From an uncultured Bacteroidota bacterium (GTDB lineage: Bacteria; Bacteroidota; Rhodothermia; Rhodothermales; DATKEJ01), in NCBI GenBank assembly GCA_963768715.1, contig CAVYJC010000010.1, positions 151,458-215,457 on the forward strand: a stretch of DNA of 64,000 nucleotides. The letters are read 5' to 3'. A model generated the notes under the pieces. The model had not been told where the DNA came from. It made no database searches and saw only the letters and a list, made by a program, of their open reading frames with translations. Shown here in pieces: positions 8,692 to 37,311 of this stretch. A program made the position numbers and the translations under genes. Position 1 is the stretch's first letter. The number at the start of each line of letters is the position of its first letter.

Positions 8692-9805
8692 GACGAAAGT
8701 AGCCCACGCCGGCACAGTGCCTGATCCCGAAACCGGTGCATTGATCCCCCCGCTTCACGCATCGACCACGTTTGAGCGCGACGCGGATGGCTCATATCCC
8801 AGGGGATTTGTGTACTCTCGCTGGAGTAACCCGACCCGTGCGCTTCTCGAGCGGACACTTGCCGATCTGGAAGGAGGAGCAGGGGCTATCCTGTGCCCAA
8901 GCGGCATGTCGGCCATCGACACCCTGCTGCGTACGCTGTCTCCGGACGATCACGTCATCCTTGCGGACGACGTCTATCATGCGACGCGCCAACTCCTGCG
9001 AGACTTTCTTGGATCGTGGGGGCTGCGCTTCACCGAGGTCGATTTGGCTGACGCCGATGCTCTCGATGCGGCATTCGAAGATCGGACGCGCCTCGTCTGG
9101 ATCGAGACCCCTTCGAATCCTCTCTGTAAGATTACCGATATCGCAGCCGTTGCGGCTGCTGCGCACGCCCGATCGGCCGAAGTGCTCGTCGACAGCACGT
9201 GGACGACCCCGATCGTACAGCGGCCGCTTGAACACGGCGCCGATTTCGTGGTGCATTCGGTAACCAAGTATCTCTCAGGACATAGCGATGTATTGGCGGG
9301 AGCGCTCGTGTCTGCTAGCCTGGAGGGTAGGTTTGCCCGGGCTCAGCAGCTACAGACCGTTGCGGGGAATGTGGCATCGCCTTTCGACTGCTGGCTCGCA
9401 CTCCGCGGCATCCGTTCTCTGGGCGCGCGGATGCGGGTGCACTGCGAATCGGCCGCGCGCATCGCTCAGTTTCTGTCTGGCCATGCGAAAGTGGAAAGGG
9501 TGTTCTATCCCGGACTGACTTCTCACCCAGGTCACGCGATCGCGCGTCGACAGATGAAGGCGTTCGGTGGAATGATGTCGTTTCTGTATGACGGCGACGA
9601 ATCGGCGACGCTCGCGGTTGCCGCTGCTATGCAGCTGTTCACGCGAGCAACAAGCCTGGGAGGCACGGAAAGTCTGATCGAACACCGCGCTTCCATAGAA
9701 AGCAAGCCAACGCGCACGCCGGTGAATCTACTCAGGTTGTCTATCGGACTCGAGCATCCCGACGATCTGATCGAGGACCTGGAGAGAGCACTTTCAGGGT
9801 CCTAG
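8678..9805 (+). CDS. PLP-dependent Cys/Met-metabolism enzyme (cystathionine gamma-synthase/lyase family)
   Basis: 'YSRWSNPT', 'SGMSAI' and 'HSVTKYLSGHSDV' (PLP lysine) are present. Conserved sequence starts at the ATG at 8678 (MARIETK...). Confidence 0.85.
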   Translation: MARIETKVAHAGTVPDPETGALIPPLHASTTFERDADGSYPRGFVYSRWSNPTRALLERTLADLEGGAGAILCPSGMSAIDTLLRTLSPDDHVILADDVYHATRQLLRDFLGSWGLRFTEVDLADADALDAAFEDRTRLVWIETPSNPLCKITDIAAVAAAAHARSAEVLVDSTWTTPIVQRPLEHGADFVVHSVTKYLSGHSDVLAGALVSASLEGRFARAQQLQTVAGNVASPFDCWLALRGIRSLGARMRVHCESAARIAQFLSGHAKVERVFYPGLTSHPGHAIARRQMKAFGGMMSFLYDGDESATLAVAAAMQLFTRATSLGGTESLIEHRASIESKPTRTPVNLLRLSIGLEHPDDLIEDLERALSGS

Positions 9806-15204: not shown

Positions 15205-17592
15205 TTATTCTTTCACGTTTGACGTATGCCGGAGAAAATGCTCCTGGCAATTGAGAGAGTCCTCCAAAGGGTCCAAATCGGGTCGTGCGAACGAGCCGTC
15301 AGACTGCATGATACGTACCTTCTGGTTGTCGGCAAGATACGTTGTCAGGATTGAGTCTTTGAGTCGCCGAATCATGTCGCGATCCTCGATCGGAAATAGA
15401 ATCTCGACTCGACGGTTAAGATTGCGAGGCATCATATCGGCGCTTCCGAGATAGATAACCTCGTTTCCTGCATTTCGGAAGTAGTAAATGCGGCTGTGCT
15501 CGAGAAATCGTCCGACGATGCTCCGTACGGTAATGTTGTCGCTGACACCCGGCAGACCGGGACGCAGACAACACACGCCGCGGACGATCAGCTCGACGCG
15601 AACTCCTGCCTGGGACGCCTCGTAAAGCAGCCGGATTATTCCACTATCGACGAGCGAGTTCATTTTGAACACCAAATGGCCCCCGCGTCCCGCCTTCTGA
15701 TGATCGATCTCGCGCTTGATGAGCTCCTCCATCTTGAGCCGGAGCGACACAGGAGCCACGAACAGCTTCCTATAGGTCTTCTGCGCGGAATACCCCGTGA
15801 GAAAATTGAAGAGGTCGGTCGCGTCGGCGCCGATGTCCGGATCAGCGGTGAAGTAGCCGAGATCCTCATACAGGCGAGCCGTGACCGAGTTATAGTTGCC
15901 AGTCGCCAGATGGATATATCGCCGGATGTGCTCCCCCTCCGATCTCACCACCAGTGCAATCTTCGAGTGCGTCTTTAGTCCGAGCAGTCCATAGATCACG
16001 TGTACGCCGGCGTCTTCGAGGACCTTCGCCCAGCCAATGTTGCTTTCCTCGTCGAACCGCGCCTTGAGTTCGACCAGCACGGTCACCTGTTTGCCATTTT
16101 CCCGTGCGTGAAGCAGCGCTTCCACGACTGGCGAGTTTCTTCCGACCCGATAGAGCGTCTGTTTGATCGCGAGCACGTGCGGATCGTGTGCTGCTTCCTC
16201 GAGGAAAGTGATAACGGGGTCGAACGACTCGTATGGCTGATGAAGGAGGAAGTTTTGCTTCCTGATTGCGCTGAATATGTCTGCGTCGCGCACGTCGGTG
16301 CGCAAGGCATCGGGCGTCGTCGGAAGGAATGGAGAATAGAGCAGGTCGAATCGATCCACCTTCCGCCCGAGGTTGAATAGCGAGCTCAAACCAAGCGGCC
16401 CTTCCAGTACGTAGGCATCACGACGATCCATTGCCAGGTTCTCCGACAGGATCTGGCGCAAATCTTCGGGCATCGACGGATTCACCGATACACGGACGAC
16501 CGATCCGAAACGTCGTTTCCTGACACTCTGCTCAACAGATTCGAGTAGATCGGCGGCCTCCAGCTCCTGGATCGCCATGTCGGCATTCCGCGTCACGCGA
16601 AACGGGTGACTTTCGACGACCTCAATGCCGGGGAACAGGGCGCCCAGGTTCGTGGCGATGACCTGCTCGGTCCATACGAAATAGTGGTCGTACGGTACCG
16701 TACCGTCTTTCCGGACGCTGCCCGATGACCTCTTTACGGGGATGAGCCTGGGTATCGAACCGGGCACTTTCAGCCGCGCAAAATGCGTCTGGCCATCGGG
16801 TTTCCTGACCCGCACGGCAAGGTTCAAACTCAGGTTCGAAATGTGTGGAAAGGGGTGACCCGGATCGAACGCCATTGGCGTGAGCACGGGGAAAATGTTC
16901 TGATCGAAATAGTCCTTCGCAACCAACTTCTGCCTTTCAGTCAGCTCATCGTAATTGCTTATGTGGATGCCATTGCGATCCAGCTCGGGCAGCAGATCAT
17001 GAAGGAGAACGCGTCGTGATTCGATCATGAGCTCGTGGGCGACCTTTCGGATGGCGGCCACCTGCTCGGCGGGCGTCATCGCGTCGGGTGACGAATCAGC
17101 GATTCCGGCCTCGATTTGCATCCTCAAACCCCCGACGCGCACCATGAAGAACTCATCCAGGTTCGATGCCACAATGCCAATGAACTTGACTCGCTCGAGG
17201 AGTGGATTACCCGGGTCCTTGGCCTCGTCGAGCACGCGCCGCTGAAACTCCAAGAGACTCAACTCGCGGTTGAGGTAGAGTTTGGGGTCATACAGGCTGA
17301 TCACCCGCTTCGATGAATCCGCCGACCGATCCACTGATGGGCGCCCGTCTCCACCGAACTCGATGTCATCGAGCACCTTCTGAAACATCTCGAGACCATC
17401 CGAAAGGAAGGTCCGTCGCCAGTGGCGGACGCGGGCAGGCGACATGTCAAGCTCGTCTGCTATCTGCTGGGTGCCGTGGCCATCCTGATAGAGCAGAAGC
17501 ACCATGGCGCGCCGGCGTGCGGCCTCGTCGGAGGTGTTCTCCGCGAGGCGAGACAGTGTCGCCTTGTCGCGTTCACTCAGAAGCTCGCTCAT
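15205..17592 (-). CDS. ppk: polyphosphate kinase 1 with a ~100-aa N-terminal HTH extension
   Basis: 795 aa. The canonical PPK1 core starts at ~residue 105 ('YLNRELSLLEFQRRVL', 'SNLDEFFMVRV'). The autophosphorylated His region 'GLKTHSKIALVVR' and two PLD-like C-domains are present. Confidence 0.95.
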   Translation of the reverse strand: MSELLSERDKATLSRLAENTSDEAARRRAMVLLLYQDGHGTQQIADELDMSPARVRHWRRTFLSDGLEMFQKVLDDIEFGGDGRPSVDRSADSSKRVISLYDPKLYLNRELSLLEFQRRVLDEAKDPGNPLLERVKFIGIVASNLDEFFMVRVGGLRMQIEAGIADSSPDAMTPAEQVAAIRKVAHELMIESRRVLLHDLLPELDRNGIHISNYDELTERQKLVAKDYFDQNIFPVLTPMAFDPGHPFPHISNLSLNLAVRVRKPDGQTHFARLKVPGSIPRLIPVKRSSGSVRKDGTVPYDHYFVWTEQVIATNLGALFPGIEVVESHPFRVTRNADMAIQELEAADLLESVEQSVRKRRFGSVVRVSVNPSMPEDLRQILSENLAMDRRDAYVLEGPLGLSSLFNLGRKVDRFDLLYSPFLPTTPDALRTDVRDADIFSAIRKQNFLLHQPYESFDPVITFLEEAAHDPHVLAIKQTLYRVGRNSPVVEALLHARENGKQVTVLVELKARFDEESNIGWAKVLEDAGVHVIYGLLGLKTHSKIALVVRSEGEHIRRYIHLATGNYNSVTARLYEDLGYFTADPDIGADATDLFNFLTGYSAQKTYRKLFVAPVSLRLKMEELIKREIDHQKAGRGGHLVFKMNSLVDSGIIRLLYEASQAGVRVELIVRGVCCLRPGLPGVSDNITVRSIVGRFLEHSRIYYFRNAGNEVIYLGSADMMPRNLNRRVEILFPIEDRDMIRRLKDSILTTYLADNQKVRIMQSDGSFARPDLDPLEDSLNCQEHFLRHTSNVKE

Positions 17593-17777
17593 GATCGCTT
17601 GTCCGGACAGGAAAGCTTAAACCTAATCATCGGTGGTATTACAATTTAGGTCAGGGCGCCGAGTCGGGTAAGAACGTTTTAGGGCGTCCCGGGTTCAACG
17701 CGTCGACCATTCAATGAGTGGTCGCTGAAACTTACCTTCCTGAATCTTTTTCATCTGCTCGCGGCCTTTTCGACTCT

Positions 17778-18962
17778 ATGGCGATCTTCGTTACAGATCC
17801 CTCGGAAGACAGCAAGGTGCCTTTCCTTCGAGGCATCCTGACCCGTTCGCTACAGCAGGCGGGGATGGAATTCGAAGAGGCCTACGAGATTGCGGACCGC
17901 GTCCGTGACTCACTTGGATCAGACGCCGAGATTACCTCCGGTCAGCTCTCCAAACTGGTAGCGAAGCAGCTTCAGGAGTTGGGGCACTCCGAAATCGCGA
18001 AGCGATATCTGAAGCGATCGGTGCCATTGAATCGGATCACCGTACTCGATCGTGACGGACTGCCGCAGCCGTTCTCTAAGGCAAGATTGTCACAGGGTCT
18101 GGAAACCTGTGCGCTTTCGGAGGCCCGCTGCTACGCCATTACGGCGCATATCGAGCAGACCCTTCTTCAGCGGGGTATTCGGGAAATTCAATCGCGCGAG
18201 TTGATCCGGCTCACCTACGAGTACCTTCTCCGCCAAGAATCGAAGGAAGTGGCAAGACGCTATCTGGTCTGGTTCGAGTTCTCCCGGAGCGGCCGACCCC
18301 TTGTGTTGCTGATCGGCGGAACAACCGGGTCGGGCAAGAGCACGATCGGAGCGGAGATCGCGCACCGGCTGAACATCATCCGCACGCAGTCGACCGATCT
18401 TCTCCGCGAGGTGATGCGGCTGATGGTGCCCGAACGTCTGCTGCCCGCTCTGCACACGTCGTCGTTCAGCGCATGGAAGACACTGCCGACCGCGGAAGAC
18501 TTGACCGAGCCGACGTTAAATGGCGATTTCGAGCAGGGCTTCCTGATTCAGGCAAGCCAGGTCGGCGTTGCCATAGAAGGCGTCGTGAGTCGAGCGGAAA
18601 CGGAGCAGATATCGTTGATACTGGAGGGGGTGCACGTACATCCCGCCCTCCAGAACAATATTCGGAGTACATCAGGCGTCATCGTCGTACCAATTCTGCT
18701 TGCCGTGCTGAAGCGAAAGCAGCTTCGAAAACAACTCAAGGGGCGCGGCCATCAGGTCTCGACGCGGCGCGCCGAGCGCTATTTGGAACACTTCGATGAA
18801 ATCTGGCACCTGCAGAGCTTTCTCCTGCGGGAAGCAGACCGTTTCAATATCCCGATTATCTCCAATACCGATCAGGATGAAACGATCAAGAGCATCATGA
18901 CGACCATTGTGGATCGACTCTCCGAAGAATTTGCCGGAGATCCGAAGCAGATGCTCGGCTGA
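17778..18962 (+). CDS. two tandem ATP-cone domains fused to a P-loop kinase (2-phosphoglycerate kinase-like, COG2074-type)
   Basis: Two ATP-cone-like segments are visible ('IFVTDPSEDSKVPFLRGIL...', 'ITVLDRDGLPQPFSKARL...'), followed by the Walker A 'GGTTGSGKST'. The track start at 17718 is a GTG; the ATG at 17778 is preferred. Confidence 0.6.
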   Translation: MAIFVTDPSEDSKVPFLRGILTRSLQQAGMEFEEAYEIADRVRDSLGSDAEITSGQLSKLVAKQLQELGHSEIAKRYLKRSVPLNRITVLDRDGLPQPFSKARLSQGLETCALSEARCYAITAHIEQTLLQRGIREIQSRELIRLTYEYLLRQESKEVARRYLVWFEFSRSGRPLVLLIGGTTGSGKSTIGAEIAHRLNIIRTQSTDLLREVMRLMVPERLLPALHTSSFSAWKTLPTAEDLTEPTLNGDFEQGFLIQASQVGVAIEGVVSRAETEQISLILEGVHVHPALQNNIRSTSGVIVVPILLAVLKRKQLRKQLKGRGHQVSTRRAERYLEHFDEIWHLQSFLLREADRFNIPIISNTDQDETIKSIMTTIVDRLSEEFAGDPKQMLG

Positions 18963-18978
18963 ATCCACCTATTGATAT

Positions 18979-20247
18979 ATGAAGCGACACAAGGGACTGA
19001 TGATCGTATTGGACGGTCTTGGCGATCGTCCTACCAAAACCCTGAACGGCCTGACACCGCTCGAGGCGGCAAACATCCCGACACTCGACCGCCTGGCGGC
19101 TGAAGGACAGACCGGCTTTGTCTCTCCTCTCGAACCATGGGTACCGGTCGGCACCCAGACGGGGATGGGTATGCTGATGGGCCTGGCAAAGGCCGACGCG
19201 CGTCTCCTCACGCGAGGGCCTGTCGAAGCGGCCGGCTGTGGAATCCCACTCAAGGCCGGAGACGTCGCGCTGCGCTGCAACCTGGCGACCATTTCTTCGA
19301 ACGGATCGGGGTTCGACCTGCTCGACAGGAGGGCCGGTCGCATCACCGAGGGCGTGGATGAACTCTTGCTTCCAATCGACGGACTCTCTCTGGGCAACGG
19401 AATCTCTGTCAGAGCCCGACCGTCGACGCATCACCGGGCGGTCGTGTCTCTGGTTGGAGAAGACCTCTCAGGTGCTGTCACCGACACCGATCCCGGTGCC
19501 GGTCTCGAGGATCAGGGCGTCCTCGTCTCCCACCCTCGCGACGACAGCGAGGCCGCGGCGCGAACTGCGGTGGCGATTAACGCGCTCATCCGTCTGGCCC
19601 ACGAAGCCATGGCCGCTCATCCAGTAAACAAGGAACGCCAGTCGCGCGGAGAGCATCCCGCTAACGGATTGATCACGCGGGGGGCGGGCATGGTGTTTTC
19701 AACGCGGAACCTGATCGCGCACCTCGGCCTCAAGGCGGCAGTAATTACGGGCGAAGGCACAGTCATTGGCTTGGGGAGTCTTTTCGGCTTCGACGTGATC
19801 GTTCGCGATTCGTTCGACGCTTTGCCATCGACGGATATCGAGGGGAAACTCGCCGCGGCTTCGGAAGCCCTCGCCACCCATGATCTTGCAATCGTTCACG
19901 TCAAGGCAACCGACGTGCTCGCGCACGACGGCGATTCGGTCGGAAAAGCGAGGTTTCTGGAACGATTCGATGCGGCACTCTCGAAGCTGGCCCTCGACGA
20001 ACTTGCCGTCGCCGTTACGGGAGATCATACGACCGACTCCAACTCCGGACGTCATACGGGCGACCCTGTGCCGGCGCTGATCAGAGCTCCAGAAGGTCGC
20101 TTGGACGGCGTGACTGTGTTCTCAGAGAGCAGCTGCCTCGCGGGCGGACTCGGGTATTTGTCCGCCACGTCATTCCTTTGCTGCCTGCTGGACTTAATGA
20201 ATCGGATGCATCTCCACCGGGCGTACGAGCACTATTTCTACGAGTAG
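18979..20247 (+). CDS. apgM: cofactor-independent phosphoglycerate mutase, archaeal type (ApgM family)
   Basis: 422 aa. 'LMIVLDGLGDRP...LTPLEAANIPTLDRLA', 'HVKATDVLAHDG' and 'VTGDHTTDS' match the alkaline-phosphatase-superfamily ApgM pattern. Confidence 0.8.
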   Translation: MKRHKGLMIVLDGLGDRPTKTLNGLTPLEAANIPTLDRLAAEGQTGFVSPLEPWVPVGTQTGMGMLMGLAKADARLLTRGPVEAAGCGIPLKAGDVALRCNLATISSNGSGFDLLDRRAGRITEGVDELLLPIDGLSLGNGISVRARPSTHHRAVVSLVGEDLSGAVTDTDPGAGLEDQGVLVSHPRDDSEAAARTAVAINALIRLAHEAMAAHPVNKERQSRGEHPANGLITRGAGMVFSTRNLIAHLGLKAAVITGEGTVIGLGSLFGFDVIVRDSFDALPSTDIEGKLAAASEALATHDLAIVHVKATDVLAHDGDSVGKARFLERFDAALSKLALDELAVAVTGDHTTDSNSGRHTGDPVPALIRAPEGRLDGVTVFSESSCLAGGLGYLSATSFLCCLLDLMNRMHLHRAYEHYFYE

Positions 20248-20286
20248 GGGCGCCCAGAGATTGCGGCACAGTCACGCTGCGCTGGT

Positions 20287-21552
20287 TCAACCGAAGATGC
20301 CGCGCAGAACGAAGAAGAATAGGGCGGCCAGACCTGCGCCGATCGGGAGTGTGACCAGCCATGAAATGATGATTCGGCCGATGACGCGAAGATCCAGGGC
20401 GGCAAAGCCGCGCGCGAGACCAACGCCCATCACCGCACCAACGAGAATGTGTGTCGTAGAAACGGGGATTCCCGTCCGCGAAGCGACCACGACCGTCGCA
20501 GCAGCGGCAAGCTCCGCGCAGAATCCACGTGTCGGTGTCAGCTCGGTAATCTTCTCGCCGATGGTTCGCATGACGCGATAGCCCATCGTCGCGAGACCGC
20601 TGACAATGCCCGCGCCGCCCAGAAGCAGAATCCATAACGGCAGTTCCGAGCTCTGCGCCACCTCACCTCCGGACTTCACGATGCTCGCGACGGCAGCCAG
20701 CGGACCGATCCCGTTCGCGACGTCATTCGATCCATGGGCAAACGCCATCGCGCAGGCAGTGAATATCTGCATGGGCGCAAAGACGCGTTCGACGCTCGCA
20801 AAGTGATAGGTCTTCTCCCCGGCGGGATCCGGCTGCTTTCGACGAATGACGCTCCAACCGATGACACCTGCGATGAGACCCACAACGGCCGCCCAGAAGA
20901 GACTCATTCCGAACGAAAGCGTAATATCGAGATGCGTCAGGCCCTTGAAGAGTGTCACGAGGGCGATCAGAAACCCGACAAGCGTCACATAGGCGGGGCC
21001 CCATTTCTTTGCATTCTCAAATGGATGCTCGGTGTCCAGAATCAAACGCCGGACAGATACCATGAGAAGCAGTGCAATGAGTCCACCGAGTATCGGCGAA
21101 ACGACCCAACTCGCGACGATTTCAGTCACCGTGCCCCACTGCACGCCGTCGACGCCAATTCCGACGACGGCAAAGCCGACGATGGCGCCCACAATCGAGT
21201 GTGTGGTCGACACGGGCCATCCGCGTGCCGAAGCAATCATCAGCCAGACTCCTGCTGCGAGAAGCGACGCCAGCATCCCGTAAATGATGAGCTCCGGGTG
21301 ACCGATGAGAGGTGCGGGATCGACCACGCCTTTTCGGATCGTGGATGTGACGTGTCCGCCGGCAAGGACTACGCCGGCAAATTCGAATATGGCGGCAACC
21401 AGAATGGCCTTCCGCACGGTGAGCGCGCCCGAGCCCACGGAAGTCCCCATCGCGTTCGCCACATCGTTCGCCCCAACGCCCCAGGTCATGTAGAACCCGA
21501 AAGCGGCCGCCAGCCCAACAAACCAGGTACCGTAAGTCGCGACGATTTCCAT
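20287..21552 (-). CDS. pit: inorganic phosphate transporter, PiT family
   Basis: 421 aa, polytopic, with the duplicated 'GANDVANAMGTSVGS' / 'GSNDVANGIGP' signature. Confidence 0.9.
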   Translation of the reverse strand: MEIVATYGTWFVGLAAAFGFYMTWGVGANDVANAMGTSVGSGALTVRKAILVAAIFEFAGVVLAGGHVTSTIRKGVVDPAPLIGHPELIIYGMLASLLAAGVWLMIASARGWPVSTTHSIVGAIVGFAVVGIGVDGVQWGTVTEIVASWVVSPILGGLIALLLMVSVRRLILDTEHPFENAKKWGPAYVTLVGFLIALVTLFKGLTHLDITLSFGMSLFWAAVVGLIAGVIGWSVIRRKQPDPAGEKTYHFASVERVFAPMQIFTACAMAFAHGSNDVANGIGPLAAVASIVKSGGEVAQSSELPLWILLLGGAGIVSGLATMGYRVMRTIGEKITELTPTRGFCAELAAAATVVVASRTGIPVSTTHILVGAVMGVGLARGFAALDLRVIGRIIISWLVTLPIGAGLAALFFFVLRGIFG

Positions 21553-21576
21553 TAAGCGGCGATTTGAAGCATGATG

Positions 21577-22257
21577 CTACCGGGCTATCAGTAGTCGCAG
21601 ACGATTCCCGACCTTTTCGGCGTAATCGGCAAGATCACCGATCCATTCGATCAGCTGGTACCAGAACATGACGGAAACGGGCGAGAGCGAGTCCTCTCGA
21701 TCGAAAAGCGCTCTTCCCAGCGCAACGCCCAGTTTGTCCGTCTCCTCTTCCGATGCGTTGAGTGCCGACACCATCTCTTCCACCTGAGCCGCTTCCCGAC
21801 CTCCGAAGCCCATCGCGAGCAGCTCGTCGAGCTCCGCGATAATGTCGGCCGACTGGTGGCAGACGGCGACGCATCGGTCGACCATTTTCGTGAGATCCTC
21901 CTCCATCCCGTCCGGGATTGTCATTCGCCGCTCTACGAGGAGCCCGGCAATGTCCTGCGCCACGTCCGCAATCGAGTCCTGCATGTCGAGTACCTCGAGA
22001 AGATCTCGACGATCGACGGGAAGAAACAGGCTGCGGGGAAGGTGCCGCCGAAGATCGTTCTTGATTCGGTCGGCTTCCTCCTCGGCGGCATAGATCGCCT
22101 CCTTTGCCTCTGCGACGGCAGCAACATCTCCGTCGGCGAGTGCCTTGAAAAGACCGGGGACGATGTCGACGGTGGCTATTGCCGCCGTCATGTGCTCTTG
22201 CAGCGACGTGAAGGGGTTATTCCCGAAAAGACTCGCAAACGGATTGGTCGGCGGCAC
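21577..22257 (-). CDS. DUF47 / TIGR00153-family Pit accessory protein (PhoU-related)
   Basis: 226 aa, all-helical, with a 'EEEADRIK.DLRRHL' pattern. It lies directly upstream of pit, as is typical for this family. Confidence 0.8.
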   Translation of the reverse strand: MPPTNPFASLFGNNPFTSLQEHMTAAIATVDIVPGLFKALADGDVAAVAEAKEAIYAAEEEADRIKNDLRRHLPRSLFLPVDRRDLLEVLDMQDSIADVAQDIAGLLVERRMTIPDGMEEDLTKMVDRCVAVCHQSADIIAELDELLAMGFGGREAAQVEEMVSALNASEEETDKLGVALGRALFDREDSLSPVSVMFWYQLIEWIGDLADYAEKVGNRLRLLIAR

Positions 22258-22328
22258 GAGGTATCGTATTTGGTGATTCTTCGGAATCTACGAACCGTCC
22301 ACCTTGCGTGAAATGCAGCCCGACAATC

Positions 22329-23156
22329 TCAGCCGTACCGCCCTTCGATGTAATCGGCGGTCTCCTTACGCTCCGGGCGGAGAAAGAGCTCCTCCGTCTT
22401 TGCATGTTCGACCATCTTTCCCATCAGCATGAATGCACATTCATCGCTCGCCCGGCGAGCCTGCGCCATATTGTGTGTGACGAGCAGGATGGTGTACTGC
22501 CCACGAAGACGCCAGATGAGATCCTCTACGGCCTCCGTCGCCTCAGGATCGAGTGCGGAGCAAGGTTCGTCCATCAGAATTACCGCCGGCTTGACGGGGA
22601 CGAGCCGGGCGATGCAGAGTTTCTGCTGCTCTTCGAGCGACAATTCCGTAGCCCTTTGATCGAGACGATCTTTCACGCGATCCCAGAGGAGGACCTCCCG
22701 AAGCGCCTCTTCAACGATCCGTTCTCCTTCGGCGGCAGGAATACGCCCCTTGCGGGCCTCGTGGAGCGAGTATCCGAAAAGGACATTCTGTCGGATGGAT
22801 ATCGGCAGTGGATTCGGTCGCTGGAATACCATGCCGATCTGCTTGCGTAGCTGCGCGAGGTCCACTAACGGGTCGAATATGTCGTTTCCGAGTACCTCGA
22901 TACGACCCTCCGTACGTACATAGCCCAGGCGCTCGTTGATCCGGTTTACCGATCTGAGCAGGGTGGACTTGCCACATCCCGACGGGCCGATCAGCGACGT
23001 GACCAGGCCGCGCTTTACCTGGAAATTGATGTCGAACAGCGCCTGGAAGGTGCCGTACCAGAGATTCAGGCTGTGCGTCTGTATGGCCAGATCCGACGGA
23101 TGCTCCAGGGATGGAGATGTCGCTCGGGAAGGTTCTTGGCTCGCCGTATCGCTCAT
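22329..23156 (-). CDS. pstB: phosphate ABC transporter ATP-binding protein PstB, with a degenerate signature motif
   Basis: It has Walker A 'GPSGCGKST', Q-loop 'VFQRPNP', Walker B 'ILMDEPCSALD', H-loop 'VTHNM' and the C-terminal 'DYIEGRYG'. The ABC signature reads 'LSLEEQQKL' instead of LSGGQQQRL. Confidence 0.9.
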   Translation of the reverse strand: MSDTASQEPSRATSPSLEHPSDLAIQTHSLNLWYGTFQALFDINFQVKRGLVTSLIGPSGCGKSTLLRSVNRINERLGYVRTEGRIEVLGNDIFDPLVDLAQLRKQIGMVFQRPNPLPISIRQNVLFGYSLHEARKGRIPAAEGERIVEEALREVLLWDRVKDRLDQRATELSLEEQQKLCIARLVPVKPAVILMDEPCSALDPEATEAVEDLIWRLRGQYTILLVTHNMAQARRASDECAFMLMGKMVEHAKTEELFLRPERKETADYIEGRYG

Positions 23157-23165
23157 GGTATTCGC

Positions 23166-23954
23166 TCAGCCAAATCGGCCGAGAATGTAGTCGTGCGTTC
23201 TCTGGTCTTTGACGTTCCCCTCGAAGAGATCCTCTGTCTTACCGATCTCCACGCAGCGACCGCTCAGGAAAAAGGCGGTTCGCTCGGCCAGCCGTCGCGC
23301 CTGCTGTACCAGGTTGGTCACCAGGACGATTGTAATCTCTTTCCGCAACTCCTTGAGGACATCCTCGATTCGCATCGTCGTTACAGGATCGACGGCGATC
23401 GAAAATTCGTCGAGCACGAGCAACCTTGGCTCCTGTGACAAAGCCCTGGCAATCGTGAGTCGCTGTTGCTGGCCGCCCGACAGGAGGCTGCCAAGCGAGT
23501 TCAGTCGGTCCTTCACCTCGTCCCACAACGCGGCCCGGCTCAGACACCGTTCGACAATTTCATCGAGACGCCTCTTGTCCTTGATCCCCGACAGGCGAGG
23601 AGCGAGCGCCACGTTGTCGTAGACGCTCAGGGGAAGTCCGACCGGGAGTGGAAAGACCACGCCGATTTGGCTTCTCAGCGCATATACATTCCGCCACTCG
23701 GTCACGTCGCGGCCGAGAAAGCGGATTGTGCCCGACACTTTCATGTCGGTATTGAACAAGTCCATCCGACTCAACGCCCGTAGAAAGGACGTTTTGCCGC
23801 TATTGGCCGGACCGATAATGCCGAAAATCTCGTGTTCGTTCACCTGGAGGTTCACGTCGTTGAGCGCTTCGGTCGGTCCGTAGTGGACCGACAGATTCCG
23901 GACGTCCAGAACCGGTTTATACTCTTGTTGGGACCCGTCGAGTGCTTCCGTCAT
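23166..23954 (-). CDS. second PstB-like ATP-binding protein, with degenerate Q-loop and H-loop
   Basis: Walker A is 'GPANSGKTS' and the signature 'LSGGQQQRL' is intact. The Q-loop is 'VVFPLP' (Q->P) and the H-loop is 'LVTNLV' (H->N). The start was set at the ATG at 23954, 5 nt past the pstA stop. Confidence 0.85.
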   Translation of the reverse strand: MTEALDGSQQEYKPVLDVRNLSVHYGPTEALNDVNLQVNEHEIFGIIGPANSGKTSFLRALSRMDLFNTDMKVSGTIRFLGRDVTEWRNVYALRSQIGVVFPLPVGLPLSVYDNVALAPRLSGIKDKRRLDEIVERCLSRAALWDEVKDRLNSLGSLLSGGQQQRLTIARALSQEPRLLVLDEFSIAVDPVTTMRIEDVLKELRKEITIVLVTNLVQQARRLAERTAFFLSGRCVEIGKTEDLFEGNVKDQRTHDYILGRFG

Positions 23955-23958
23955 CACG

Positions 23959-24834
23959 TTACCACTTCTTCCTGCCTCTGAGGTACACCCGAAATCCGAT
24001 CGATAGCGCATTCATGACCAGTACGATCATGATCAGCAGGAGTGCTACGCCGTACGGGAGGGCGTCGGGCACATTCGGAACCTGCGTCGAAACGACGAAC
24101 AGGTGCAACGAAAGAGCCATCGTCTGATCGAATACCGACTCGGGAAGGAACGGGAGAAAGAATGCAGCCCCGGTGAACATGATGGGTGCTGTCTCCCCCG
24201 CCGTTCGGGAGACCTCCAGAATGATACCTGTAAGGATGCCTGAAATGGCGTTCGGAAGGACGATTCGCCGAATGGTCTGCCAGCGCGTGGCGCCCATGCT
24301 CCAGCATGCCTCGCGAAAGGCCATCGGGACAGCCTGAAGTGATTCGCGCGTCGAGACGATCACTACGGGCAAAGTCATGATCGCGAGCGTCAAGCTGGCT
24401 GCGAGAATGCTGGTGCCGATCCCGAAGAACAGGACGAACGCGCCGACGCCGAAAAGGGCGTATACGATGGATGGAACGCCGGCCAGGTTGATAATCGCCA
24501 GATTGATCATCCGCGTCAACATATTGTCGGGCGCGTACTCACTGAGATAGACGGCGGCGGCGACTCCGAGGGGTACCGAAAAGAGCAACGCCGTGGCTAC
24601 CAGGAGGATCGTTCCCAGCAGAGCCGGGAAGATGCCGCCTGCGGTCATCCCCTGCGTCGGAAACGTGAACAGGAATTCTGTCGAAATCATCGGGCCGCCC
24701 CTGATGACGAGGAGGCTGAGGATGATGAGTACCGGAAGGATCAGCAGCACCGTCATCACCCCGAAAAGCAGACGGAACTGCTGCTGAATACGGCGGTCGC
24801 GGTCGTTTCTTTTGGTGGCGGCAAACAAGCTCAT
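23959..24834 (-). CDS. pstA: phosphate ABC transporter permease PstA
   Basis: Polytopic permease with the 'REACWSMGATRWQTI' EAA-loop region. The ATG at 24834 overlaps the pstC stop (ATGA). The longer track ORF is an Arg-rich extension. Confidence 0.9.
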   Translation of the reverse strand: MSLFAATKRNDRDRRIQQQFRLLFGVMTVLLILPVLIILSLLVIRGGPMISTEFLFTFPTQGMTAGGIFPALLGTILLVATALLFSVPLGVAAAVYLSEYAPDNMLTRMINLAIINLAGVPSIVYALFGVGAFVLFFGIGTSILAASLTLAIMTLPVVIVSTRESLQAVPMAFREACWSMGATRWQTIRRIVLPNAISGILTGIILEVSRTAGETAPIMFTGAAFFLPFLPESVFDQTMALSLHLFVVSTQVPNVPDALPYGVALLLIMIVLVMNALSIGFRVYLRGRKKW

Positions 24835-25763
24835 CGGTGCCTCCGGTTGCCTCTCCTGACAACGATGTCCGCCGTCAGGTTGATCACGAAAGTCACGAGA
24901 AAGAGGAGGATACCGAGTGTGAACAGCGCCCCGTAATGTGGCGAACCGACGGCTGTCTCCCCTAATTCCGCGGCGATCGTCGCCGTGAGAGCGCGAACGG
25001 AATCGAATATGCTGGTTGGCATCTGGATCGCGTGGCCACTTGCCATGAGTACGGCCATCGTCTCGCCGAAGCCGCGACCGATCCCAAGGAGAACGGCCGA
25101 GACCAATCCGTTTCGGCCTGCCGGAATGACGACCTTTCGAATTACTTGCCACTTCGTCGCACCCATCGCTTCGGCTGCCTGACGAAAGTCGTCAGGGACA
25201 GCCTTGAGCGCATCCTCCGCAATCGTGGTCATTATCGGCGCTGCCATCAGGCCGAGGATAATCCCCGCGTTGAGCACGTTGAGTCCGATCGGCACGTCGA
25301 ACAGCTTGATGATCAGCGAATTCATGACGCTCAGACCGATAAATCCCCAGACAACCGAAGGGATCGCCGCGAGCAGTTCCACCAGTACTTTGAGTGTCTC
25401 TCGCGTTTTGCCCGATGCGAATTCACCGATGTAGATCGCCGCACCGAGGGAAAATGGTATCGCTACCACCATGGCCATGCCGGTCACGCTGGCAGTTCCT
25501 GCAATGAGCGCGAGCGCACCGTAGGTTGGATGGCGTTCCGAAGTAGGCACCCATCGCGGCGACGTGAAGAACTCTGCGAACTTGAAATCGCCCGTGATGA
25601 AAGAGAGGCCTTCCTTCGTGATGAATACAAAGATGCCGATGATGAAGATCACGGCGGACACGCCCCCGATAAAGAAGGCGATCTGGGCGAACTTGTCGAT
25701 GTACCAGCTCGCTCCTCTGGCGTCCAAGCCACCCTCGTAAGATCCGTCTCTACTTGAAGCCAC
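24831..25763 (-). CDS. pstC: phosphate ABC transporter permease PstC
   Basis: 310 aa, polytopic, with the 'FRQAAEAMGATKWQVI' EAA loop. Confidence 0.9.
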   Translation of the reverse strand: MASSRDGSYEGGLDARGASWYIDKFAQIAFFIGGVSAVIFIIGIFVFITKEGLSFITGDFKFAEFFTSPRWVPTSERHPTYGALALIAGTASVTGMAMVVAIPFSLGAAIYIGEFASGKTRETLKVLVELLAAIPSVVWGFIGLSVMNSLIIKLFDVPIGLNVLNAGIILGLMAAPIMTTIAEDALKAVPDDFRQAAEAMGATKWQVIRKVVIPAGRNGLVSAVLLGIGRGFGETMAVLMASGHAIQMPTSIFDSVRALTATIAAELGETAVGSPHYGALFTLGILLFLVTFVINLTADIVVRRGNRRHR

Positions 25764-25766
25764 GGT

Positions 25767-26849
25767 CTAAGAGAAGTCCTCCCCACGCAATGTTGTCATG
25801 AGCGAAGCGATATAGCCCGAAAGGATGCGGTAGAGGTCCTCCAGAGACTGCTCGTCATCAGGCGACGCCTTGGGCAGGTCCCACCATGTGACGATCACTG
25901 TGTTGAACGGCGCGGGATCGATCACTGCGGCGCTGTCGGGTTCGAGACAGACGATAACCTTGTAGTCGGACCAGGATTCCAGGTCTTTCGCTGCTGTCGG
26001 GCGCAGGTCGGAGGTTTCGTGGCCCAGCCTTTCCAGGAGATCCTTGCAAGCCTTGCTGATCGTCTGCGCCGGTTCGATTCCCGCCGTGGAATAGACGCCG
26101 TGATCGGGATAAGCCTTCTTCGCAATTGCGAGCGCGGTGGGTCCGAGGAGGTCGTTTGATCGATCCAGAAACAGGACGGGCACAGGCTTGCGCTTTTTCG
26201 TCTCTCCGTCGACGACGAAAATGGCGTACTCGCAGACGTTCTTCGCCTGATCGCTGACCCGCTCGAGCATGCTGAGGATAACGAGCGTTCCGAGCAGGTC
26301 GTCCAACGGCCGCTCTGATTCTGCCCCGGTTCTGACGAGCTGCCCGAACGCGACATCGAAGGATTCATCGATTTGTGCCTCGAGAATCATCGTTCCCCGG
26401 GCCAGATCCGCATTTTCCTCGACAAACGCTTTCACCGACTGCTCGAACATCTCGATCGATTCGTGACCTATCAGGCGAATTTCCGACGCCAGCGGATCGA
26501 TGATGGGGGCCTTCAGGCGCGTCGCCTCACGACAAATCGTCGCGGCATAGTCTCCGACGCGTTCGAGTACGACATTGGCTCTAAGGACCGACGAGATCAA
26601 GCGAAGATGACCAGCGGCGGGTAGATGCCTTGCTACGAAGTGGTGGCAGGCTCGATCGCATGCCTCCACCGCGCGATTTATTGGATTGTCTTCGAGGATC
26701 GTCCGATATGCGAGCCGGCTGTCGTGGTGCTCAAGCGCCCGTAGCGACTGCTTGAGGGCAGTCGCTACGAGAACGCCGATTTTCTGGACGCGATCCTTGA
26801 TGTCTTTGAGGTCCTGCTCGAGGCGAACCTCATAGTGATGCTCAGTCAT
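25767..26849 (-). CDS. PhoU-domain protein fused to a catalytically degenerate LMW-PTP/ArsC-like domain
   Basis: The N-terminal ~220 aa carry two PhoU repeats ('LERVGDYAATI', 'LERVSDQAKNV'). The C-terminal ~135 aa are colinear with the LMW phosphatase/ArsC fold ('VLFLDRSNDLLGP', 'VYSTAGIE', 'VIVCLEPD', 'WWDLP') but lack the CX5R Cys and Arg. Confidence 0.75.
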   Translation of the reverse strand: MTEHHYEVRLEQDLKDIKDRVQKIGVLVATALKQSLRALEHHDSRLAYRTILEDNPINRAVEACDRACHHFVARHLPAAGHLRLISSVLRANVVLERVGDYAATICREATRLKAPIIDPLASEIRLIGHESIEMFEQSVKAFVEENADLARGTMILEAQIDESFDVAFGQLVRTGAESERPLDDLLGTLVILSMLERVSDQAKNVCEYAIFVVDGETKKRKPVPVLFLDRSNDLLGPTALAIAKKAYPDHGVYSTAGIEPAQTISKACKDLLERLGHETSDLRPTAAKDLESWSDYKVIVCLEPDSAAVIDPAPFNTVIVTWWDLPKASPDDEQSLEDLYRILSGYIASLMTTLRGEDFS

Positions 26850-26874
26850 CAGGGCACGTTTTGGAGGAGGTCAT

Positions 26875-27756
26875 TTAGGGACAGGTCACAGGGTGCGCCG
26901 GCGCATATCCCTTGTTGAGGATGATGCACTGGCCGGTGTCGCTCAGGATCCAGTCCAGGTACTCTTTGACCGCGCCTTCGGGTTGGTGTGCCGTGTACAT
27001 GAACAGTGGGCGCGCAATCGGATAGCTCCGGTCGACGGCCGTCTCGATCGAGGGCGCAACCGGCTCTTCCCCTGCCGCCGTCTCAACCGGAACGAGTTTG
27101 ACTTCGTCGGTAGCGTAGGCCAATCCGGAGTAGCCGATGGCGCACGGCGTATTCTGAACGAGGTCTACGACGTCCTTTGAGCCCTGCATATCGCGCGAAC
27201 CCAGTTTGTAGTCACCTTCTCCGAGAATCGTCTCGCGGAAATAGGCATAGGTGCCGGAGTTGTTCTGACGGCTGACGCGGATGATTTCCTGATCTTTACA
27301 TCCCGGTACCTCAAATCCCAGATCGGTCCATTTCGTGATTGTGCCATTCTCCCCGTAGATCCCGGCAAGCTGATCGAATGTGAACGACTCGACCGGGTTG
27401 TTCTTGTTGACGTAAACGGCGAGGGCGTCGTAGCCGACGACGAACTCGACCGGCTGCTGGCCATTGGCACGTGCCTGGTCGATTTCCGAGTCTTTCATAG
27501 AGCGACTCGCGTTGGCGATATCTACAGTCCCGTTGATAAGGGCCGCGATTCCGGTTCCCGAGCCCCCGCCGGTGACGGCCACCGCGACGTTGGGATCGAC
27601 GTTGCGATAGGCCTCCGCCCACGCCTGGGCTACGTTCACAAGCGTATCGGAACCCTTGTTTTGGATGACGCTGCGCTGGGAGCCGCCGCCACCGCCGCAT
27701 CCGGCGACGATCAGGAAGGCTGCCGCGAACCGCGCGGTATACTTAAGGTGTTTCAT
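26875..27756 (-). CDS. pstS: phosphate ABC transporter substrate-binding lipoprotein PstS
   Basis: It has the lipobox 'IVAGCGG', plus 'GSDTL', 'GGGSGTGIAALINGTVDIANASR' and 'YSGLAY'. Confidence 0.9.
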   Translation of the reverse strand: MKHLKYTARFAAAFLIVAGCGGGGGSQRSVIQNKGSDTLVNVAQAWAEAYRNVDPNVAVAVTGGGSGTGIAALINGTVDIANASRSMKDSEIDQARANGQQPVEFVVGYDALAVYVNKNNPVESFTFDQLAGIYGENGTITKWTDLGFEVPGCKDQEIIRVSRQNNSGTYAYFRETILGEGDYKLGSRDMQGSKDVVDLVQNTPCAIGYSGLAYATDEVKLVPVETAAGEEPVAPSIETAVDRSYPIARPLFMYTAHQPEGAVKEYLDWILSDTGQCIILNKGYAPAHPVTCP

Positions 27757-27767
27757 TGTGGAAGTAG

Positions 27768-28481
27768 TTATTGGTTTGTTACGATGTCGTTACGATGTCG
27801 CCCGCCATGCCGGACATCAATCCCCTCGAGCCAGAAAAGCACCGATTCGGCGATGTTGACACAGTGATCGGCAATCCGCTCGAGTGATTTGCTGAGCGCA
27901 AAAATCCGCGCTCCAAGGGTGAAGGCACGATCGGTGCGTTCCTGTCGCTCCATCAAGAGATCGAGGGTCCGACGATGGAGGCGGTTGACTGCGGACTCAT
28001 TTGATATCAGCTCCCACGCCCGCTTCCGGTCGCCTCGTGTAAAGGCGTCCTGAGCACTGTAGAGCATCCCTCGCACGGCGTCAACCATCCGATCGAAATG
28101 ATCTCCCGGCAAGTGGGAGATCAAGCGTGGCTGCTCCGCACCCGCCCTCGCCAGATTCCTGCAGTGATCTCCCATCCGCTCGAGATCGGTGTTGATCTTG
28201 ATCGCCGTCATCACGAAACGGATCGTCTCGCGGTCCGTCGGTCGCGTCGCGATCACGGCCTCGCACATGCCGTCGATTTCCATTTCGAGATCGTCGATGA
28301 AGTCGTCCCGGCGACCAACACGCTCGGCGACCTTCTCGTCACTCGACAAGACAGCGTTCAACGATTCTGCAAGCTGCTCGTCGACGGCATTGAACATGAC
28401 ATAGAGACGCTCACGAATAGCCGACGTGGCCGATCTTTCGTCTCTCAGCGGCGAGGCTTGCGTCATTTCCATCATGATCAA
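27768..28481 (-). CDS. phoU: phosphate signalling complex protein PhoU
   Basis: 237 aa with two PhoU repeats ('LERMGDHCRNLA', 'LERIADHCVNIAE'). It overlaps the porin stop by 4 nt. Confidence 0.85.
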   Translation of the reverse strand: MIMMEMTQASPLRDERSATSAIRERLYVMFNAVDEQLAESLNAVLSSDEKVAERVGRRDDFIDDLEMEIDGMCEAVIATRPTDRETIRFVMTAIKINTDLERMGDHCRNLARAGAEQPRLISHLPGDHFDRMVDAVRGMLYSAQDAFTRGDRKRAWELISNESAVNRLHRRTLDLLMERQERTDRAFTLGARIFALSKSLERIADHCVNIAESVLFWLEGIDVRHGGRHRNDIVTNQ

Positions 28482-29443
28482 AAGTCAGCGTGGAGTGTCA
28501 CCCGTCCGGATATGTCGGGATCGCTGTGATCGCTGGCGTCTACCAGATAGAGATTCGGGATCAGATGGACTTTTGGGTTTGGACTGAATGCGACACCGCC
28601 GATGATGAATGTCTCGGTCGTCGAAACACGGCCGGTGTCGATCCCGGTGTAGTCGCCGCGGCCGATGATCTCGACCTTCTCGCCAACGGGCTTTACGATC
28701 CAAACCGAGACGCCCCTTTTGTCCATGGACGGCCCTGTGTCGAAATCAATCGTCTGGTAGTATCCTTCGGCTCCAACTCGGAACTGCTCGGCGCTGTAAC
28801 CCACAAATGCATTTGTGTTGATGGCATTCCGATTGTCACCGGCGGCAAAATCGCCGCCAACGGAGGCGGCAACGTTGTCAGACTGCCAGGCCACCTGCCC
28901 GTACACTCGCTTGTACTTGTCATCCTCACCGCGAATGCTGTTGTTGTTGCCGAGCATGACGCCGTAGGTGAGGTCGCCGTCGGACGTCAGCTTGCCGGTG
29001 GCTGCGATGCCCATATCACGCGACGACGCAATCTTTTGACGATCCATAATCGTCTTTTCGAGGCTGCGGTAACCCCAGATCTTCTCAGAGAGAGTGAAGA
29101 CAGGCGGACTCTGAACCCCAAAAACAAGATCCTGGCCCTGTCCAATCGCCCCTTTCCATTTCAGGTACAAGTCCTTCACGTAGGGAGAGGTGGTGGACGT
29201 CCCGCTCACGGACTCCAGGCGCGCACGCCCGCTGAACTCTTCCGACAACGTATAGTCGGCCGTCAAATACAACCTCCGGTAGTCGAAGCCGTTCTCGCCT
29301 TCGGCTTCCTGATCGGTGGAAGAAAGAAGGTATTCATAGTCCATGTAGAACAGCCCGCTCCAGCGGACGGCATTCTGAGCGGCGGCAGGAAGCGTGACTG
29401 CGCCCAAGACCGTCATCACAAACAAAGGCTTGAGATATTTCAT
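28478..29443 (-). CDS. outer-membrane beta-barrel porin (Pho-operon-associated; phosphate-selective porin candidate)
   Basis: It has the signal peptide 'MKYLKPLFVMTVLGAVTLPAAAQ', alternating beta-strand patterns and a C-terminal Phe ('...TLHADF'). It is the first gene of the pst run. Confidence 0.6.
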   Translation of the reverse strand: MKYLKPLFVMTVLGAVTLPAAAQNAVRWSGLFYMDYEYLLSSTDQEAEGENGFDYRRLYLTADYTLSEEFSGRARLESVSGTSTTSPYVKDLYLKWKGAIGQGQDLVFGVQSPPVFTLSEKIWGYRSLEKTIMDRQKIASSRDMGIAATGKLTSDGDLTYGVMLGNNNSIRGEDDKYKRVYGQVAWQSDNVAASVGGDFAAGDNRNAINTNAFVGYSAEQFRVGAEGYYQTIDFDTGPSMDKRGVSVWIVKPVGEKVEIIGRGDYTGIDTGRVSTTETFIIGGVAFSPNPKVHLIPNLYLVDASDHSDPDISGRVTLHADF

Positions 29444-29548
29444 TCACCTTGAGATTGATGATTTCCATGACTCCGGAGGACTATTTCAGACTGGTGAGAA
29501 ACTGTCCCAACCGATGTCACCAAGATGCGGCTCGCCTATGACCGAAGC

Positions 29549-29590
29549 GTTATGCTTCAGTTATCGCATTGTTAACAAATCGTTACCGGG
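29549..29590. promoter_or_regulatory. candidate Pho box: four direct GTTA(T/A/C) repeats at exact 11-bp spacing
   Basis: GTTA starts at 29550, 29561, 29572 and 29583. The repeats lie 107-143 nt upstream of the porin ATG (29443). The minus-strand reading includes TTAACA. Confidence 0.4.
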
Positions 29591-29600
29591 GGGGGTCGAA

Positions 29601-30275
29601 TCAGGCTGAAGGGGATGACCCGACTTCGTCGACGGGCCCCCTGATCCGTTCGTATGGCAGGACGACCGATGAGGCGATATTGGAGAGATGGGAGCTGACG
29701 CGTCCCATCATAAGCGCCGCGCTGCTTAGCACTACGGCTGCATTGACGCTGAGGTCGTCGGCTGACGCAACGTCCTCGATAAATACGCGCAGGTCGCTCT
29801 TGACTGCCGTGCTGTCGACCATGACTTCGCGCGCGCTCTTTACGTCGCCGTCGACGAAGCCCTTGTAGGTCTTATCGAACATCTTCGTGATTTGCTCTCC
29901 GGCAGAACGGAGCGTTGACAGACGCGGCCCAAGCAGGGGCTTTTCAGTCAGCTGGGCAAGCGCACCGATGTGCTTGACCCAGTCACCGATTCGCTCGCCG
30001 TCCTGCACCGTGCTGACCAGTGCCAGGCTGAGGACGAGGTCTTCGTGCGGCTGTTTTTCGATGTGCTTGAAGACCGCTTTGCGAATGCTTCGTTCGCGGG
30101 CATTGATGCCGTCGTCCATCTCCTGGAGCGACACCTCAAGCGGAACGCTGAACAGAAGGTGTGAAACGGCCGCCGACCACATTGATCGGGCGATATCGAT
30201 CACTTCGCCCATCTGCTGACTCGCCTTGCGAATGGGCGCAGGCGTATCGTCCCGAAAAAGGTCGAAAAGTCCCAA
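29601..30275 (-). CDS. PhoU-domain-containing protein (divergent paralog)
   Basis: 224 aa, helical. 'DDGINARERSIRK' and 'VQDGERIGDWVKHIG' fit the PhoU repeat pattern. The gene begins 6 nt after the rho stop. Confidence 0.65.
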   Translation of the reverse strand: MGLFDLFRDDTPAPIRKASQQMGEVIDIARSMWSAAVSHLLFSVPLEVSLQEMDDGINARERSIRKAVFKHIEKQPHEDLVLSLALVSTVQDGERIGDWVKHIGALAQLTEKPLLGPRLSTLRSAGEQITKMFDKTYKGFVDGDVKSAREVMVDSTAVKSDLRVFIEDVASADDLSVNAAVVLSSAALMMGRVSSHLSNIASSVVLPYERIRGPVDEVGSSPSA

Positions 30276-37256: not shown

Positions 37257-37311
37257 ACGTTTTCGGATGAGCGTGTCGGGAAGGAGCCTGTCGGCGCCCA
37301 AACCGGTCCGT

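Follow-up and report, generated by a model that had tools for sequence, protein, structure and literature searches.

A 64-kb window of DNA from an uncultured bacterium of the order Rhodothermales, phylum Bacteroidota (64,000 nucleotides of contig CAVYJC010000010.1, positions 151,458 to 215,457), contains a phosphate importer (pst) locus in which two different PstB-type ATPases are encoded side by side on the minus strand. We propose that the upstream protein (PstB', here called Up; 23166-23954, 262 amino acids) and the downstream protein (PstB, here called Dn; 22329-23156, 275 amino acids) together make up an obligate heterodimeric ATPase that serves a single PstS-PstC-PstA importer and has one live and one dead ATP site. 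On the sequence comparisons described below, we put the probability of this arrangement at about 80%. An asymmetric heterodimer had been suggested from the window alone (the original prediction), and the suggestion is supported by conservation of the substitutions on which it was based, by the adjacency and common orientation of the two genes in 87 of 87 non-redundant genome pairs, and by the co-divergence of the two proteins.

Both proteins are PstB paralogs. Each contains the PF00005 domain, and the best NCBIfam model for each is TIGR00972 (PstB), matched end to end, with scores of 314.5 bits for Dn and 277.5 bits for Up; neither reaches the model's equivalog cut-off of 343.2 bits. The maximal open reading frame of Up begins at 24011, and we place the start at 23954 because a database protein that is 100% identical to Up (P0001) has 262 amino acids and close homologs have about 250-275. 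Dn has a 99%-identical counterpart in the database, labelled as coming from a Rhodothermales metagenome-assembled genome. Up aligns to residues 11-257 of the solved Escherichia coli PstB structure (9k3x chain C, E = 3.4e-58), through the terminal sequence DYILGRFG. The C-terminus of Dn is ADYIEGRYG, so the canonical DYIxGR[FY]G tail is present in both paralogs.

In ATP-binding cassette (ABC) transporters the two nucleotide-binding domains (NBDs) form a head-to-tail dimer, in which each ATP site is made from the A-loop, Walker A and B motifs, Q-loop and H-loop of one domain and the signature motif of the other. Hydrolysis depends on the H-loop His (the catalytic 'linchpin' in HlyB, MalK and HisP) and on the Gly residues of the signature; replacement of the second signature Gly by an acidic residue is the type of defect seen in CFTR G551D. 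Dn has a consensus Walker A motif (GPSGCGKST, 22962-22988), keeps the Q-loop Gln (MVFQRPNP, 22809-22832) and the H-loop His (LVTHNM, 22467-22484), and has a consensus Walker B/D-loop region (VILMDEPCSALD, which includes ILMDEPCSALD; 22548-22583). Its signature is LSLEEQQKL (amino acids 172-180; 22617-22643) in place of LSGGQQQRL. Up has the consensus signature LSGGQQQRL (23457-23483). In its Q-loop (VVFPLPVG, 23637-23660) the Gln is replaced by Pro within a remodelled PLPVGLP stretch, and in its H-loop (LVTNLV, 23307-23324) the His is replaced by Asn. The Walker B/D-loop region of Up (LLVLDEFSIAVD, which includes LDEFSIAVD; 23388-23423) keeps the Asp-Glu pair, with SALD changed to IAVD, and its Walker A motif (GPANSGKTS, 23787-23813) keeps the Lys and Thr, with Asn at the fourth position in place of Gly.

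Neither polypeptide therefore has a full catalytic motif set, since the Q-loop Gln and H-loop His are missing from Up and the signature Gly-Gly from Dn. All the motif strings quoted in the original prediction were found in the translations at the coordinates given for both genes. Two features go beyond it: Up also deviates in Walker A, where the fourth-position Gly is replaced by Asn or Gln, and it retains the catalytic Glu of Walker B. When the motifs are placed on the geometry of the NBD dimer, the defects of both proteins converge on one composite site and leave the other at consensus, with the exception of the Up D-loop. The claim that every defect maps to a single site is therefore slightly overstated, because the altered D-loop of Up faces the consensus site.

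Only the heterodimer gives a consensus site, because a Dn homodimer would carry Leu-Glu signatures twice and an Up homodimer would lack the Gln and His twice. In the proposed mechanism, the consensus site would combine Walker A, Walker B, the Q-loop and the H-loop of Dn with the LSGGQ of Up; it would hydrolyse ATP and drive the switch of PstCA between inward- and outward-facing states. The degenerate site would combine Walker A and B of Up, its Pro-containing Q-loop and its Asn-containing H-loop with the L-x-L-E-x signature of Dn. This second site is very unlikely to hydrolyse ATP, because the H-loop His is lost and the signature has an acidic Glu. It probably still binds Mg-nucleotide, because Up keeps its A-loop, Walker A and Walker B residues, and it would then have a structural or regulatory role, with at most one ATP hydrolysed per transport cycle. 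The change in the Up D-loop, on the side of the live site, could couple both sites.

The substitutions in both proteins are conserved. We made a combined alignment of 141 Up-type, 139 Dn-type and 67 other PstB-like sequences, the last from 59 other loci. Invariance counts in these protein sets are inflated by many close homologs, and a more conservative set of 87 non-redundant genome pairs, with at least 54% identity to the window proteins, agrees with them. All 141 Up-type sequences have the Q-loop Pro, the H-loop Asn and the motif DEFSIA[VI]DPVTTM, and all 141 keep the A-loop Tyr, the Walker A Lys and Thr, and the Walker B Asp-Glu. L-P-V-G-L-P in the Q-loop region is likewise invariant among them, and the fourth position of Walker A is Asn in 121, Gly in 12 and Gln in 5. 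The top 120 protein matches to Up (74-100% identity, from several phyla) all have DEFSIAVD and VTN, and VFPLPV wherever this simple pattern could be matched; the intact signature LSGGQQQRL is found in 120/120 of these matches and in all orthologs. On the Dn side, the first signature Gly is replaced by Leu in 139/139 sequences, the second by Glu in 138/139, and the Arg by Lys in 139/139, which gives the form L-x-L-[E/A]-x-Q-Q-K-L, with rare R/D variants in the wider set of genome loci. The signature Ser of Dn varies (S/Q/A/L among the 139, and also T/P/R in the wider loci). The Q-loop Gln, the H-loop His and the Walker motifs of Dn-type proteins are at consensus. All of the top 120 matches to Dn have the Dn form of the signature (exactly LSLEEQQKL in 102), and those of them that are members of the Dn family all keep the Gln and His. 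That orthologs should retain the LSLEE signature and the Gln-to-Pro and His-to-Asn changes was thus borne out in 141/141 Up-type and 139/139 Dn-type sequences.

Of the 67 other PstB-like sequences, 64 have the Q-loop Gln and 66 the H-loop His; the first signature Gly occurs in 65 and the second in all 67. The exceptions are other degenerate PstB-like genes. Because these residues are nearly universal outside the two families, the pattern of substitution in Up and Dn is far from chance. The family-specific fixed changes are also clustered: in Up they concentrate in Walker A, the Q-loop, the Walker B/D-loop region and the H-loop, and in Dn they concentrate in the signature and the helical subdomain.

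When genomes were scanned, one for each species, 21 orthologous loci proved to be complete, and their proteins share 56-77% (Up) and 57-73% (Dn) amino acid identity with those of the window. These loci belong to Gammaproteobacteria (including Accumulibacter and Chromatiaceae), Planctomycetota, Myxococcota, Acidobacteriota, Binatia, Verrucomicrobiota and Poribacteria, and the next identities below them, at most 49%, belong to canonical PstB. The order pstS-pstC-pstA followed by the NBD genes is kept in 21/21 of these loci. In 21/21 a Dn ortholog with consensus catalytic motifs and the signature L-x-L-E-x-Q-Q-K-L follows directly after Up. We also searched with a DNA pattern for DEFSIA[VI]DPVTTM, which has matches in at least 120 species genomes from about ten phyla. 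The carriers include cultured organisms (Saltatorellus ferox Poly30, Limisphaera and Prosthecobacter debontii), and among the others are Gemmatimonadota, Bdellovibrionota, Nitrospirales, KSB1, Thiodiazotropha and Lysobacterales.

These data bear on whether the two genes are merely duplicates decaying under relaxed selection, or products of assembly error. The scores of both proteins below the PstB equivalog cut-off would fit decay. Both reading frames are intact, however, the same substitutions recur in at least 120 species genomes, and sequence identity remains high between phyla. Mean identity within the family is 64% for Up and 65% for Dn, compared with 59% for canonical PstB, and because these values are not below the canonical one we see no sign of relaxed constraint. 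Columns that are at least 95% invariant are also commoner in the two families (131/251 in Up and 120/251 in Dn, versus 76/250 in canonical PstB), a comparison that is indicative only, as the Up and Dn sets are rich in close homologs. The conservation data effectively refute decay or assembly error, and we give this explanation a negligible probability.

The two genes are also strictly paired. We read the genomic context for 8-13 kb around each match. Among the matches listed from the Up-specific DNA pattern, a Dn-type gene lies downstream in 107 of the 117 loci examined; of the other 10, eight are cut by a contig end, one is a fragment and one has no Up-type reading frame. The 107 include a Prosthecobacter locus (L112) with a 750-nucleotide spacer between the two genes. 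In the 87 non-redundant pairs, a mirror-tree comparison of the Up and Dn distance matrices gave r = 0.83, against a maximum of 0.13 in permutations.

If the proteins did not form a heterodimer, Dn homodimers might power transport and Up might be a regulator without a role in transport, or might serve another transporter. The Prosthecobacter spacer is compatible with such a separation, and so is the finding that the tandem PstB1 and PstB2 of Enterococcus faecalis are not equivalent, with excess PstB2 able to replace PstB1 (PMC12096839). The E. faecalis proteins are consensus in both members of the pair, however, and the Firmicutes tandem pairs that we sampled fall outside both the Up and the Dn clades. 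A Dn homodimer or an Up homodimer would also be defective at both of its sites, and across about ten phyla the two genes are strictly paired and co-diverge. Furthermore, the window locus and the related loci each have only one pstC-pstA pair, and we found no ABC ATPase within the 64-kb window other than Up and Dn. The window thus encodes two different NBD polypeptides, adjacent, co-oriented and 9 nucleotides apart, for one transporter with a single pstCA pair, and we regard the absence of a heterodimer as highly improbable.

The heterodimer model also suggests which NBD sits where. The EAA coupling loop of PstA has six family-specific fixed residues (AFREACW[NS]..., LPN) and that of PstC has one. 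The Q-loop region, which lines the groove for the coupling helix in type I importers, is remodelled in Up and canonical in Dn. Because family-specific residues of this kind are concentrated in the PstA loop and the Up Q-loop is the one that is remodelled, Up may dock on PstA and Dn on PstC, which is a weaker inference than the heterodimer itself.

Several observations weigh against a heterodimer with one live and one dead site. Up keeps the catalytic Glu of Walker B, unlike many degenerate sites in exporters, so residual hydrolysis at the degenerate site is possible. The bulky Leu-Glu signature may prevent canonical closure over ATP, in which case the 'dead' site would not resemble the ATP-occluding sites of exporters. 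The D-loop change in Up is on the side of the site that is supposed to be live. A canonical pstB gene, if the carrier genomes have one beyond the 8-13 kb that we read, could partner either protein. Finally, the sequencing runs that hold the locus are DNA metagenomes only (from salt marsh, wetland and soil).

We also considered that the degenerate site might be a repurposed latch or sensor and not an ATP 'glue'. The invariant Glu of the signature, together with two hydrophobic loops (PLPVGLP and TNL), would hold the interface closed without a gamma-phosphate, in a nucleotide-free or ADP-bound state, or would bind a regulator that gates the live site according to phosphate or energy status. The residues that replace the consensus are themselves invariant (P/L/P/V/G/L/P, T-N-L and L-E, in 138-141 of about 140 sequences each), and because they are fixed and not simply lost they suggest a gained function. 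The signature Ser of Dn is free to vary, so contact with the gamma-phosphate appears to be dispensable. In addition, position 4 of Walker A in Up co-varies with position 2 of the signature in Dn: among the 87 non-redundant pairs, Asn is accompanied by S/T in 47/53 and Gln by Q/L in 20/21. In the heterodimer these two residues would lie opposite one another at the degenerate site. The pattern follows two subclades, however, and is thus confounded with phylogeny, and the A-loop Tyr, Walker A Lys and Thr, and Walker B Asp that Up retains point to ordinary binding of Mg-nucleotide.

A candidate for such a regulator is encoded in the same locus. The gene at 25767-26849 (minus strand) encodes a 360-amino-acid protein with an N-terminal PhoU domain (TIGR02135, 132 bits over amino acids 9-216) and a C-terminal domain of about 140 amino acids. 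A Pfam search with the C-terminal domain alone gave no match. A profile built from 19 orthologs of this domain matches arsenate reductases of the low-molecular-weight protein tyrosine phosphatase type (2l17, 1.4e-19; 1jl3, 6.8e-18), and we therefore call the protein PhoU-ArsC-like. In most orthologs the catalytic Cys of the CX5R loop is replaced by Asp, and the loop of the window protein is degenerate further (LFLDRSNDLLGP). The protein may be a phosphate/arsenate-sensing variant of PhoU. Its gene lies upstream in 35 of 49 loci of the degenerate-PstB type versus approximately 0-1 of 49 canonical loci, and an interaction between PhoU and PstB is known in E. coli (Gardner 2014, as cited in PMC12976172). 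The other 14 of the 49 family loci have no PhoU fusion nearby. Taking both sides together, we consider it distinctly unlikely that the site is a latch or sensor of this kind. A wider proposal, also unlikely in our estimation, is that a broad bacterial group runs high-affinity phosphate uptake on a Pst with a single catalytic site, whose second NBD interface would be a regulatory latch closed without ATP hydrolysis; the latch would be read by a co-evolved PhoU-ArsC-like phosphate/arsenate sensor, uniting the energisation of transport with Pho signalling.

In phylogenetic analysis the Up and Dn families are each monophyletic (200/200 neighbour-joining bootstraps for both), and the possibility that they are sister duplicates was rejected, as that grouping appeared in 0/200 bootstraps. 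The identity between Up and Dn is 37%; to canonical PstB it is 44% for Up and 47% for Dn. We searched 1.84 billion representative sequences exhaustively with HMMER for further lineages and then read their genomic context. Sister lineages (L075, L199-L208) have their genes in the same order and are asymmetric in the same direction, with milder lesions. In Chloroflexota, Syntrophobacteraceae and a Bacillota metagenome-assembled genome, the first gene has the Q-loop Gln changed to Ala and keeps the His, and the partner's signature is LSLGQQQRL. Acidobacteriota, Desulfobaccales and others combine the Gln-to-Ala and His-to-Asn changes in the first gene, and the partner has LTEEQ, LSDEQ, LSGEQ or LTPEQ. 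A change of Gln to Asp with the His kept also occurs among the milder pairs that have an LSLGQ partner. Since these milder forms share the gene order, and the first-gene proteins without the Gln all fall in one clade with Up (90/100 bootstraps), we place the window pair at the most derived end of a graded series.

Some other PstB-like genes came to light in these searches. In Nostoc, where the classical cyanobacterial pstB/pstB' arrangement occurs (L042), the second PstB gene (7401-8225) has the Q-loop Gln changed to Pro (VFPKPN) and keeps the His and LSGGQ, and the first is fully consensus. This mild asymmetry has its Gln-to-Pro change in the second gene, whereas in the window pair the change is in the first. 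In a Poribacteria metagenome-assembled genome (L016), a third PstB-like gene (8498-9295) lies downstream of the pair and adjoins phoU. It is degenerate in both its loops and its signature (GPTNSGKST, VFRKPI, LSIGQQQLL and ATNK), and its product is possibly a non-catalytic, regulatory relative of PstB. A 481-residue database protein (P0128) from one 12.5-kb metagenome contig looked like a natural fusion of Up and Dn, and we rejected it as a read-through caused by a +1 frameshift: its junction, KQNDARLREWEF, is the +1-frame reading of a normal Up C-terminus, NKMTRDYVNGNF, which indicates an indel (a sequencing error or a mutation).

The window locus is a compact gene cluster on the minus strand. 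In transcription order, with descending coordinates, it consists of a PhoU-domain gene (29601-30275), an unassigned, putative outer-membrane gene (28478-29443; 321 amino acids), a stand-alone phoU (27768-28481; TIGR02135, 146 bits), pstS for a phosphate-binding lipoprotein (26875-27756; TIGR02136, 244 bits), the phoU fusion, the permease genes pstC (24831-25763; TIGR02138, 275 bits) and pstA (23959-24834; TIGR00974, 258 bits), Up, Dn, a DUF47 gene (21577-22257) and a PHO4/Pit gene (20287-21552). Up and Dn are thus directly downstream of pstS-pstC-pstA, and the pstS, pstC and pstA model scores are all above cut-off. The start of pstA overlaps the stop of pstC (ATGA), and 4 nucleotides separate the pstA stop from the Up start. 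The putative outer-membrane gene, which lies between two phoU-type genes, encodes a protein with a signal-peptide-like N-terminus and a C-terminal Phe and has no Pfam or NCBIfam match; it is possibly an unclassified outer-membrane porin, perhaps for phosphate. Beyond the PHO4/Pit gene lies ppk1 (15205-17592), and the interval 15205-30275 as a whole is a dense phosphate island, with ppk1, PHO4/Pit and its DUF47 partner, the pst genes and three PhoU-domain genes. Genes for an ATP-cone protein (17718-18962) and an iPGM-like metalloenzyme (18979-20247) are also inside it. A few kilobases from the island, a gene on the minus strand (35691-37301) encodes a response-regulator receiver domain fused to PglZ, of the alkaline phosphatase superfamily.

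Pst is the textbook high-affinity phosphate importer and the input to Pho-regulon signalling, and its mechanism has so far been derived from a symmetric PstB homodimer. A Pst that occurs widely in nature with only one consensus site would be a ready-made system for asking how much ATP a type I importer uses per cycle and what the second site is for. It would also widen the degenerate-site principle, for which exporters have been studied thoroughly, to include a binding-protein-dependent importer whose NBDs are free-standing. Annotations such as 'phosphate ABC transporter ATP-binding protein' or 'ABC domain-containing protein' hide what would be two functionally distinct subunits. The carriers include groups of environmental importance, namely the polyphosphate-accumulating Accumulibacter, Planctomycetota, Verrucomicrobiota, Gemmatimonadota, Acidobacteriota and sponge Poribacteria, as well as cultured strains. 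We found no description of a degenerate PstB pair in the searchable full-text literature, where the E. faecalis work was the only study of a tandem pstB that we found. Within that literature, the original prediction's claim of novelty for the phosphate importer holds: the complementary-degenerate PstB pair is new for this transporter, and the degenerate-site principle itself is known.

The closest structural reference is E. coli PstSCAB, for which cryo-EM structures (9k3x, 9k3y and 9k3s; Nat Commun 2026, PMC12976172) show two copies of the same PstB, of which one is attached to PstA and the other to PstC via the EAA coupling helices. The window system has the same operon logic (pstS, pstC, pstA, ATPase and phoU) and both of its ATPases match E. 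coli PstB end to end. E. coli, however, uses one PstB twice and has two consensus sites, whereas the window pair can form only one. Tandem genes in Firmicutes (pstB1/pstB2 in E. faecalis, PMC12096839; pstBA/pstBB in Bacillus subtilis, L077) resemble the window pair in having two adjacent pstB genes after pstA, and in E. faecalis there is genetic evidence that the two are not equivalent. Both members of the E. faecalis and B. subtilis pairs are consensus, in contrast, and show no complementary degeneracy. The milder PstB'/PstB pairs of Chloroflexota, Syntrophobacteria, Acidobacteriota and Desulfobaccales resemble the window pair in gene order and in the direction of their asymmetry, but have only some of its lesions. 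Among other importers, the sugar and nucleoside transporters RbsA and NupO have fused double NBDs with one degenerate ATP site (PMC11466899). They differ from the window system in that both NBDs are in one polypeptide, in belonging to another importer family, and in their lesions, which are loss of the Walker A Lys or of Walker B. Degenerate sites are frequent in exporters, for example TM287/288, TmrAB, BmrCD, PatAB, TAP1/2 and CFTR (reviewed in PMC7756269 and PMC3971661). Heterodimeric exporters combine non-consensus loops of one NBD with a non-consensus signature of its partner on one site and leave the other site consensus, as we propose for Up and Dn. They have the exporter fold and chains in which transmembrane domain and NBD are fused, and their usual lesion is a change of the Walker B Glu to Asp; the window system, in contrast, is a type I binding-protein-dependent importer with free-standing NBDs, in which that Glu is kept, the Gln and His are lost, and the signature Gly-Gly has become Leu-Glu.

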